Below are positions 61,049 to 62,175 of a stretch of 64,000 nucleotides of DNA, in pieces (within the stretch, counting starts at the first letter, position 1; each line of letters starts with the position of its first letter). The stretch comes from Candidatus Wolfebacteria bacterium GW2011_GWE2_44_13. GTDB taxonomy: Bacteria > Patescibacteriota > Minisyncoccia > UBA6257 > UBA9933. The notes under the pieces were generated by a model, which was not told the origin of the DNA, did no database searches, and worked only from the letters and a program-made list of their open reading frames with translations. A program made the position numbers and the translations under genes. The stretch is taken from positions 488,875-552,874 of the forward strand of contig LCHW01000001.1 in NCBI GenBank assembly GCA_001000675.1, in the 5' to 3' direction.

Positions 61049-61084
61049 GGGTGGATTCTTTAATGCAGCAAAATAACAACTCTG

Positions 61085-61110
61085 GATTCCCGTTTTCACG
61101 GGAATGACAG
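61085..61110. repeat. REP-like hairpin (GGATTCCCGttttcaCGGGAATGACA)
   Basis: Single arm of the dispersed family. Confidence 0.4.
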
Positions 61111-61117
61111 ACTTTTC

Positions 61118-61216
61118 TAATCTGCTGTGAATAGCTTGCTTTTGCTTTCTATGGGAATAGCTTTAGTCCCCTTAATCATTACCCACCATTGACATTAACT
61201 ACTTGCTTGCTATACT
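61118..61216. repeat. conserved roughly 100-bp module downstream of the NYN gene, copy B
   Basis: About 92% identical to copy A. It contains a plus-strand TTGACA-16-TATACT at 61189-61216. Confidence 0.6.
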
Positions 61217-61222
61217 TTATGT

Positions 61223-61275
61223 ACTAAACGTGAAGGGCATCCTATATGGGTGCCCTTCTTCGTTATTCCATCCTA
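61223..61275 (+). ncRNA. predicted short cis-antisense RNA at the NYN-2 3' end
   Basis: GAAGGGCAtcctatatggGTGCCCTTC hairpin followed by a U-rich TTCGTTATT. It overlaps the stop codon region of NYN-2. Confidence 0.35.
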
Positions 61276-61886
61276 AGGATATTTCTAAGATACTCAAAAT
61301 CTCTCAAATTACTTCCTGCGAATTGTCTTAATTCTTTTGCGGTTCTATCGCTCCTGCTTAATACAATAACATCTTTATTTTCTCCTCTAAGATATTTCAA
61401 TACTGGCAAGAAATCTCCGTCCCCAGAAAGCACAACCGCCCTCTCGAAATTATTCTTTTCTTTCATTAAATGGAACGCCATATCAACATCACAATTCGCC
61501 TTTCGTTTTGTCGATCCATCATCTTGATCATATAACTTTACTGGTTTTAAAAACAATACATATCCAAAGGACTCAAGCCTTAAATAAAATCTAACCCGTT
61601 GAAGATGTCTCCCAATAAGCAGAATATCCGCTTCATTCAAAGTCTTTTCTTCATTTTTTAAAATATCCAATAAATGCTCTTCTAGTCGCTTTATTGGGAC
61701 TGTTTCATCTTTTTGATAGTCATATTTAAAATTATGGATTTCAACACCACCGAAGTACAGAATTCTTTCGGTCTGATATTTATCACCTAAATATGTAAAA
61801 AGCTTTTTATAATCAATTTTCCACCCCAAACTTTTCTCTCCTCCATAAAATAGATTGGATGCATCAATAAATGCAAATGTTTTCAT
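61263..61886 (-). CDS. NYN-domain (LabA-like, PIN-fold) nuclease, copy 2
   Basis: MKTFAFIDASNL, ANCDVDMAF and SGDGDFLPVL are the NYN catalytic Asp set. Confidence 0.75.
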   Translation of the reverse strand: MKTFAFIDASNLFYGGEKSLGWKIDYKKLFTYLGDKYQTERILYFGGVEIHNFKYDYQKDETVPIKRLEEHLLDILKNEEKTLNEADILLIGRHLQRVRFYLRLESFGYVLFLKPVKLYDQDDGSTKRKANCDVDMAFHLMKEKNNFERAVVLSGDGDFLPVLKYLRGENKDVIVLSRSDRTAKELRQFAGSNLRDFEYLRNILRME

Positions 61887-62093
61887 ATCAGTATTTTATC
61901 ATATTACGAATATATAATAAAAATATGAAGCTCCCACGGGCTTATGCTCGGGTTTTTGTTAGAAGCATAAACTAAAACCGCCCTTGCCTTGCGGCAGTGG
62001 CGGTGGTTTTAATATTACTATACTAATCTGAAATGTAATAATTATCAACGGTGCTAATAGGATTAATCACCGTTTCCCCTTCATTAATCCCTC

Positions 62094-62152
62094 AATCTTA
62101 CCAAATTTTGACCTATTATATAACTAATAAAAAAGCCCCCGTTGCCGGGGGC
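62094..62152 (-). promoter_or_regulatory. terminator-plus-promoter cassette, copy E (different hairpin, same promoter)
   Basis: AAGCCCCCGGcaaCGGGGGCTTTTTT followed by TTATAT-17-TAAGAT. It sits upstream of the long structured 5' leader of NYN-2. Confidence 0.5.
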
Positions 62153-62175
62153 TTGTCTTCTTTGAGGTCGGAGTA

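Follow-up and report, generated by a model that had tools for sequence, protein, structure and literature searches.

Predicted small-RNA genes convergent with two NYN nuclease genes in a groundwater member of the Patescibacteria

The NYN-2 locus and its small-RNA gene

We analyzed a 64,000-nucleotide (nt) stretch of contig LCHW01000001.1 from Candidatus Wolfebacteria bacterium GW2011_GWE2_44_13 (hereafter the window, to which all positions refer), and more particularly the gene NYN-2 with the DNA on either side of it. NYN-2 (61263..61886, minus strand) is an open reading frame (ORF) of 207 residues coding for a LabA-like NYN (PIN-like) nuclease, with its stop codon at 61263-61265. A paralogous NYN nuclease of 181 residues, 29% identical to the first, is encoded by NYN-1 (56618..57163, minus strand). 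Both proteins are members of the NYN family: taking the gathering score of the Pfam NYN model (24.2 bits) as the criterion of membership, PF01936 matches NYN-2 with 62.1 bits (E 1e-16) and NYN-1 with 45.4 bits. The longest ORF at NYN-1 (56618-57295, 225 residues) extends into an upstream terminator repeat, and we corrected the start to 57163 because this is where the family alignment and an identical 181-residue database protein (P0122) place it. The source of the window is a groundwater bacterium of the Candidate Phyla Radiation (CPR, Patescibacteria); a protein identical to NYN-2 is encoded on the metagenome-assembled genome (MAG) GCA_003508115.1 and on Rifle/ANAN16 contigs.

The first-pass annotation had pointed to a TTGACA-16-TATACT promoter directed into the 3' end of NYN-2 and to a hairpin lying just outside its stop codon. 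Both are present. The promoter (61189..61216, plus strand) consists of TTGACA at 61189-61194, a 16-nt spacer and TG-c-TATACT at 61208-61216; it matches 11 of the 12 consensus positions plus the TG and is, together with its twin at NYN-1, one of the two best promoter matches in a scan of 6.7 kb. Downstream of it we recognize the gene of a putative small RNA (sRNA), sRNA-2 (61223..61268, plus strand), convergent with NYN-2. Its product of about 46 nt would start with the tail ACUAAACGUG (61223-61232), continue with an 11-bp hairpin whose arms GAAGGGCA..TGCCCTTC occupy 61232-61258, 4 nt beyond the NYN-2 stop codon, and finish with a U-rich stretch over that stop codon. The gene thereby overlaps the stop codon and the predicted 3' untranslated region (UTR) of NYN-2. 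The hairpin and U-tract have the form of an intrinsic terminator and were flagged by the terminator scan, and the opposite strand reads CACGUUUAGU. The predicted fold of sRNA-2 has an energy of -24.6 kcal/mol (z -6.8 versus shuffles). The annotation had described an antisense module; an opposite-strand RNA gene with its own promoter is indeed recognized, but the RNA is predicted to end at the U-tract at the stop codon and not to run through the gene. A small ORF within sRNA-2 was considered and rejected, as the loop AUG is not in the same register in all hairpin variants and, because of the U-tract, no space for one remains.

Conservation of the sRNA-2 family

To survey sRNA-2, 80 species-level orthologue loci were fetched, anchored on the conserved block and read on the strand opposite to NYN; the loci were chosen through NYN protein matches, and the RNA was searched at those loci. 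The approximately 40 nt that follow the NYN-2 stop codon are 86-95% identical in distant orthologues. The layout found in the orthologues is TTGACA, a variable spacer of 16-18 nt, TG-n-TAtaaT, 6 nt, the tail, the hairpin and the U-tract. Across 81 orthologue loci the promoter scores on average 10.3/12, versus 6.1/12 in shuffles; the -35 box is exactly TTGACA in 50 of them, the key positions of the -10 box are T (96%), A (96%) and T (96%), and the gap between the -10 box and the start is 6 nt in 76 of the 81, which puts the expected transcription start on the first A of the tail. Nine of the ten positions of the tail are conserved at 96-100%, position 8 being G in 79%. In the U-tract, T is found at 68-93% for most of positions 37-44 after the hairpin on the RNA strand, and at 59% for position 43.

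The hairpin of the orthologues has 11 bp and a 5-nt loop. Among 73 distinct sequences, pairing holds in 99.9% of cells and compensatory changes are seen at 9 of the 11 pairs, with both sides changed in 166 cells versus 47 in shuffles. Two pairs, A17-U29 and U18·G28, are invariant across the 73 variants, while the neighbouring pairs covary freely. On the RNA strand 1 of 803 hairpin cells is unpaired, versus 117 of 803 on the NYN-sense strand. Hairpin energies average -17.2 kcal/mol on the RNA strand and -11.4 kcal/mol on the opposite one, and in each of the 73 variants the RNA strand gives the more stable hairpin. The invariant U·G and these 117 G·U cells led us to assign sRNA-2 to the strand opposite to NYN.

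A covariance model of this family, R1, finds sRNA-2 in the window (61223-61268, plus strand; 64.4 bits, E 2e-11) as the sole strong match in 64 kb. It also matches 83 of 84 NYN-2 orthologue loci, taken from numerous Patescibacteria, far above chance, and always in convergent orientation at the 3' end of the gene. The remaining locus, L025, lies on a contig that ends 53 nt beyond the protein match. An extra sRNA-2-like copy was seen at L096:181-226 (minus strand), after a methionine-aminopeptidase-like gene and near a weak NYN-like ORF. In the orthologues the distance between the stop codon and the hairpin core ranges from -13 nt, with the stop codon inside the core, to +38 nt, with the stop codon ahead of it. 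The overlap of the RNA with the coding sequence is variable and often absent. From this range of distances we conclude that sRNA-2 is independent of the reading frame; the earlier proposal that the element is maintained independently of the coding sequence thus holds, and it does so for both paralogues. Altogether, the conserved unit at the 3' end is predicted to be a discrete small-RNA gene that ends in a U-tract at the NYN-2 stop codon, and we consider it highly probable that such an NYN-linked RNA gene exists.

A distinct RNA family at NYN-1

A counterpart, sRNA-1, is found at the 3' end of NYN-1 (56566..56659 with its promoter, plus strand). The promoter, TTGACA-16-TGgTATACT at 56566-56593, again matches 11 of 12 consensus positions plus the TG. 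The predicted RNA (56600-56659) carries the tail AUCACGACGA, nested hairpins and six U residues, folds with a z of -3.9, and overlaps the stop codon and the last 12 codons of NYN-1. In 84 loci of the NYN-1 family the RNA is about 60 nt long and has a convergent promoter at the 3' end of the gene. Its tail is AUCACGA(U/C)GA, in which A, U, A, C and A reach 99-100%; its body is made of an outer stem, a conserved inner GGG-loop-CCC hairpin and a U-tract, and 8 of the 10 consensus pairs show compensatory changes. The inner hairpin is duplicated in L158 and L168 only. The corresponding covariance model, R2, has one strong match in the 64 kb (56600-56659, plus strand; 54.6 bits, E 9e-9) and matches 81 of 84 NYN-1-family loci, in 80 of them convergently. 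The single non-convergent copy (L132:2027-2086, plus strand) is co-directional with its NYN gene and downstream of it.

The R1 and R2 models gave no cross-matches, and the two tails share only A..ACG..GA. The idea that both NYN genes carry the same module must therefore be divided: in this genome the two loci do share the promoter together with some 80 nt preceding it (89-92% identity), but the cognate RNAs differ. As far as can be read from these alignments, the two NYN paralogue families have distinct RNA families, and each NYN gene would form a two-gene module with a dedicated convergent small RNA at its 3' end.

These data bear on an interpretation in which the RNA product has no role, the convergent promoter and terminator serving to block or insulate transcription at the NYN 3' end. 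The unit does consist almost entirely of a promoter, 10 nt and a terminator, and the promoter faces the NYN gene. Nevertheless, interference of this kind requires neither a conserved transcribed tail, nor an invariant U·G pair, nor paralogue-specific RNA families, and we regard it as quite improbable.

The region upstream of NYN-2

A 5' leader of about 205 nt (62092 down to 61887) with two GC-rich hairpins had also been proposed for NYN-2, possibly acting as a riboswitch, a thermometer or an attenuator. The hairpins do exist, at 61977-62004 (ACCGCC..GGCGGT) and 61930-61949, and a 212-nt stretch folds better than shuffles (z -3.56). The region (61887..62160, minus strand) contains in addition the terminator of the upstream gene (62133-62154) and a copy of a dispersed repeat block, D6 (62073-62134), in which a weak promoter-like match (about 8/12) is found at 62095-62123. 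The existence of a leader is however not supported. The first hairpin is followed on the gene strand by UUUUAGUUU and thus looks like a terminator, and the region is assembled from dispersed repeats. It is 98-100% identical in strains of the same species, but neither hairpin occurs in the four orthologues compared (L010, L013, L015 and L017); the D6 block alone is matched in L010, and nothing in the other three. No Rfam family reaches its gathering score upstream of NYN-2, the best sub-threshold hit (ylbH leader, E 0.03) looking like chance. As a promoter of NYN-2 the D6 block was unconvincing, since its match was not listed by the promoter scan and downstream genes have a proximal -10 box of their own.

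The orthologues and the window agree on a different signal. NYN-2 has an extended -10 element, TGATAAAAT (61893..61901, minus strand), and reads TGATAAAAT-ACTGAT-ATG, with the -10 box 6 nt before the ATG. The profile of 71 orthologue loci has a -10-like hexamer at -12..-7 from the ATG (T 58%, A 69%, A 73% and T 63% at -12, -11, -9 and -7), with TG frequent at -15/-14; this box is its only upstream signal, and it shows no Shine-Dalgarno sequence. A conserved -10 box at this distance without a Shine-Dalgarno sequence implies that the NYN-2 mRNA is probably leaderless. A regulatory leader is therefore very improbable in our opinion. More generally, the mRNAs of both NYN genes, like those of several further genes of the window, seem to lack a leader. 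A -10 hexamer 6-7 nt before the ATG without Shine-Dalgarno sequence is observed for many genes of the window (for example 1769-2152, 30840-32663, 48082-48999 and 60205-60855), and clear GGAGG sites are observed for others (23840, 50693 and 62176). The promoter of the NYN gene, with its -10 box directly before the ATG, is modest compared with the near-consensus promoter of the sRNA.

Repeats around the RNA genes

Comparison of the two 3' flanks shows 89-92% identity between 61109-61219 and 56486-56596 behind NYN-1. This identity covers an approximately 80-nt upstream repeat (61109..61188, shared with 56486-56565) and the promoter, and it ends at the transcription start. Since it runs through the promoter and stops there, the pattern agrees with gene conversion acting on the flanks while selection keeps each RNA matched to its own nuclease. 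The repeat is specific to the species: no conservation upstream of the -35 box was seen in the loci of 81 other species, and 61109-61188 showed no structure on either strand (z +1.4 and +1.2). Conservation of the 110-nt module as a whole was not confirmed, and across species the conserved part is, from the alignments, the promoter and the RNA only. The same 110-nt module was likewise rejected as a structured RNA, 61109-61222 being unstructured on both strands and unconserved outside the species.

Further from NYN-2, the flank is a mosaic. A hairpin repeat, CTGGATTCCCG-N-CGGGAATGACA (61082..61109), belongs to a dispersed family (D9, D14, D15) with at least 8 copies in the window; at the NYN-1 locus its place is taken by a different, longer GC hairpin. 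It is followed by the blocks D5/D6/D13 (60965..61081, minus strand), which comprise a terminator AAAACGAGGCC..GGCCTCGTTTT at 61022-61049, a conserved block of about 45 nt and GGGTGGATTCTTTAATGCA (D13). The D5/D6 terminator with its 45-nt block GTTGGTTACATAACAGGTCAAAATTTGGTAAGATTGAGGGATTAATGA is present in 5-6 copies, at 56298, 57159, 59740, 60965 (60965-61026) and 62073. Four strains (L002, L004, L005 and L007) diverge from the window exactly at 60967, in the D6 block, and carry DHQ-synthase-like genes (L002 also a methyltransferase) in place of the two membrane proteins of the window; L002 has an additional D6-type copy upstream of NYN-2.

One could thus ask whether the whole arrangement is a dispersed intergenic repeat, of the type of miniature inverted-repeat transposable elements (MITE) or of Neisseria intergenic mosaic elements (NIME), that lies behind both NYN genes by chance. 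The flank is indeed built of D5, D6, D9 and D13, all of them dispersed repeats, and the 80 nt upstream of the promoter form a two-copy, species-specific block. A parallel can be drawn with the dRS3/NIME intergenic mosaics reported from Neisseria, as 60965-61188 is a mosaic of short repeats including a hairpin of the ATTCCC-N8-GGGAAT type. The likeness is however limited to the flanks and does not extend to the RNA gene, and the host is a CPR bacterium. Each RNA gene is single-copy per NYN gene, with one strong R1 and one strong R2 match in the 64 kb, and it occupies the same position in 83/84 and 81/84 loci. For the RNA gene the repeat description is contradicted, and as an account of the whole module it is scarcely credible; it is the best description of 61049-61188. 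Three RNA patterns gave 0 hits in viral contigs, and thus no sign of a phage origin.

Among the side observations, copies of the dispersed hairpin, written (G)TCATTCCCGC-N4-GCGGGAATCCAG, lie at 15680, 46683, 47986, 48023, 49041, 49078, 51542 and 61082 and build mosaic intergenic regions together with D5, D6 and D13, while the terminator with the block GTTGGTTACATAACAGGTCAAAATTTGGTAAGATTGAGGGATTAATGA brackets gene cassettes. Another terminator block of 45 nt, TCGTACTGAAAATAAAATAGCCCATATGGGCTATTTTGTCAAATT, is found at 53505-53549 and 62551-62595, two copies 9 kb apart with 98% identity. Adjoining NYN-1, 53644-56235 (minus strand) codes for an AlwI-type restriction endonuclease and a D12 N6-adenine methyltransferase; its GC content is low (32-37%) and it looks like a variable or defence-type region. 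Two tandem units of about 215 nt lie at 25981-26357 (plus strand), on the strand opposite to all protein genes. Each has a promoter TTGACA-17-(TGc)AATACT, a stretch of about 110 nt that contains the long-range stem ACGTAGCAGC..GCTGCTACGT, and a strong terminator; they have no Rfam hit and are candidate duplicated small-RNA genes. Finally, an ORF of 3360 residues (3980-14062, minus strand) contains 16 tandem repeats of 282 nt (94 residues) with 67-84% identity.

The NYN proteins and their neighbourhoods

The AlphaFold2 model of NYN-2 has a PIN-like fold with a predicted local distance difference test score (pLDDT) of 89. The closest solved structure is the LabA-like protein 2qip (E 2e-7), and the second match is T5 flap endonuclease (E 2e-5). 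Five residues, D8, N11, D133, D156 and D158, are invariant among 30 sequences and are likely active-site residues. We detected 2971 homologous proteins across the Patescibacteria, with 71-91% identity in the top 120. The NYN-1 family is larger, being significant in all but 3 of 8000 scored candidates.

Gene neighbourhoods of NYN-2 are not conserved among the orthologue loci, and no conserved protein partner was found for the NYN genes across the neighbourhoods compared. Relatives of NYN-1 adjoin restriction-modification, Fic, RadC, PD-(D/E)XK and Panacea genes. Several paralogous NYN modules are present in some genomes, and one MAG (L074, L078) has two NYN-2 copies with 86% amino-acid identity and different hairpin variants.

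Relation to known systems

Rfam 15 gave no match at 61223-61268 and 56600-56659, even at E values up to 10, nor at the RNA positions of 8 orthologue loci, and no tRNA or tmRNA was found in the search. The literature searched contains no description of an NYN-small-RNA pair, or of an adjacent dedicated small-RNA gene for any NYN protein. The module lies outside any described family; it may work like an RNA-antitoxin system.

The proteins share their domain and the conserved acidic residues with LabA-like NYN proteins (PF01936; PDB 2qip) and with a CRISPR-associated NYN RNase. The latter, from B. fragilis, is an Mn2+-dependent nuclease of single-stranded RNA without sequence specificity (bioRxiv 10.1101/2024.04.08.588522).

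The T5 flap endonuclease (FEN) has a PIN-like fold as well, and the FEN substrate, a duplex with a 5' single-stranded tail, has the same geometry as sRNA-2. However, FENs act on DNA flaps and the likeness in fold is modest, so that for this model the similarity to flap endonucleases may serve as a lead only.

A second parallel can be drawn with type III toxin-antitoxin systems (ToxIN, CptIN, TenpIN). Here as there, an endoribonuclease adjoins a small structured RNA that is expected in excess, the sequence and structure of the RNA are conserved together with the protein, and the modules are mobile, patchy and often paralogous. In ToxIN, reportedly, RNA repeats of 34-36 nt are arranged in tandem upstream of the toxin gene, on its strand and separated from it by a terminator, and the toxin processes the array. 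In contrast, the NYN RNA consists of one unit that has a promoter of its own and is convergent, and the protein has the NYN/PIN-like fold instead of the ToxN/AbiQ fold; tests for the two features that define ToxIN found neither a tandem same-strand array nor a ToxN/AbiQ fold.

The type I systems SymE/SymR, RalR/RalA, txpA/RatA and bsrG/SR4 have a cis-encoded antisense RNA with a strong promoter that overlaps the toxin transcript, and the gene arrangement at the NYN loci would fit this, SymE and RalR showing moreover that nuclease-type toxins can have RNA antitoxins. On the other hand, typical type I toxins are hydrophobic peptides of less than 60 residues, whereas both NYN proteins are soluble, with a nuclease fold and 181 and 207 residues. 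Type I antisense RNAs are also not sequence-invariant across phyla, whereas in the present case the 10 nt of the tail and two pairs of the stem stay fixed and the remainder covaries.

On this basis, one could imagine control of the type I kind only, in which the cis-antisense RNA pairs with a read-through NYN 3' UTR, RNase III cuts and the mRNA is destabilized without any contact with the protein. Because the genes overlap convergently, 44-60 nt are bound to be perfectly complementary. After the hairpin the NYN-sense strand reads CACGUUUAGU or UCGUGAU, which are poor terminators and make read-through likely, and the next strong terminators lie 200-260 nt further, at 61022-61049 and 56356-56381. 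The layout also resembles the convergent 3' overlap reported for RatA and SR4 in the B. subtilis pairs. Automatic complementarity, however, can explain neither the conserved tail nor the A-U and U·G pairs that are invariant across 73 variants, and the overlap with the coding sequence is variable. Antisense pairing as the only mode of action thus seems unlikely.

A possible function of the RNAs

We tentatively favour another possibility, namely that each RNA is the cognate antagonist of its NYN nuclease and behaves like an RNA antitoxin. The RNA would be made in excess from its very strong sigma-70-type promoter, and the NYN protein would bind the 5'-tailed hairpin, most likely as a pseudo-substrate, in the way in which type III RNA antitoxins hold their RNase. 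Antisense control of the type I kind could add to this, as the RNA is fully complementary to the NYN 3' UTR. The argument lies in the pattern of conservation: a fixed tail and two invariant stem pairs amid covarying pairs imply sequence-specific recognition, which antisense complementarity would not require. We infer that the reader of the tail is the NYN protein, the only candidate that is constantly co-inherited with it. Several traits, seen by analogy, suggest an antitoxin module: the RNAs are specific to the paralogue, hairpin variants differ within one MAG, the neighbourhoods vary and there is no conserved protein partner. The restriction-modification, Fic and other genes named above beside NYN-1 relatives are a further trait of this sort.

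A number of observations weigh against this assumption. Across deep CPR lineages and classes the NYN-2 proteins share about 75% identity, an unusual degree of conservation for a toxin, and the neighbourhoods of NYN-2 are ordinary and not defence-rich. PADLOC gave weak, domain-level NYN hits, and the PADLOC and NCBIfam searches gave nothing beyond these. The T5 FEN similarity is modest, with a template-modelling (TM) score of about 0.45, and NYN-1 apparently lacks the helical insertion, as judged solely by a gap of about 40 residues in a tblastn alignment. Part of the sRNA-2 tail is able to pair with the U-tract in the predicted fold. Finally, the tail could be read by a factor other than NYN.

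The first two of these points, together with a 5' tail conserved like a fixed seed, would suit a positive partnership, with the RNA serving a housekeeping NYN ribonucleoprotein, involved for example in RNA processing, as cofactor, guide-like handle or dedicated substrate, and not as an inhibitor. Such a role is hard to reconcile with a patchy distribution (308 species hits in 185,579 genomes) and with the presence of several paralogous modules in some genomes. Besides, neither the tail nor its complement is enriched in the window, and pairing of the tail with the NYN-2 coding sequence is no stronger than that of shuffled tails (-6.0 versus -7.5 kcal/mol); no trans target emerged from these two checks. 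We therefore judge a positive partnership to be rather unlikely.

Beyond this locus, a broader proposal can be put forward still more cautiously than the antagonist role itself. The NYN nucleases of at least two large CPR families, together more than 10,000 protein clusters, could each have a dedicated convergent hairpin RNA of 45-60 nt with a 5' tail. This would make them a new class of nuclease-RNA modules: in one version a fourth RNA-antitoxin architecture, the RNA mimicking a flap and plugging the active site of the PIN-like protein, and in the other a nuclease loaded with an RNA that provides a fixed seed.

Conclusions

In bacteria, proteins of the LabA-like NYN type are numerous and have hardly been studied; for CPR bacteria, hardly any regulatory RNA has been characterized by experiment. 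The comparisons presented here define two new, strongly supported small-RNA families, each of them tied to one nuclease family, whose promoters, predicted starts and terminators are evident from the sequence itself. They also correct gene models, through the start of NYN-1 and the mRNAs that appear to be leaderless. The R1 and R2 covariance models can be used to annotate thousands of metagenomic loci. These modules could reveal a new RNA-based control of PIN-like RNases, and the genomes of CPR bacteria could turn out to contain a further class of toxin-antitoxin or defence-like modules.

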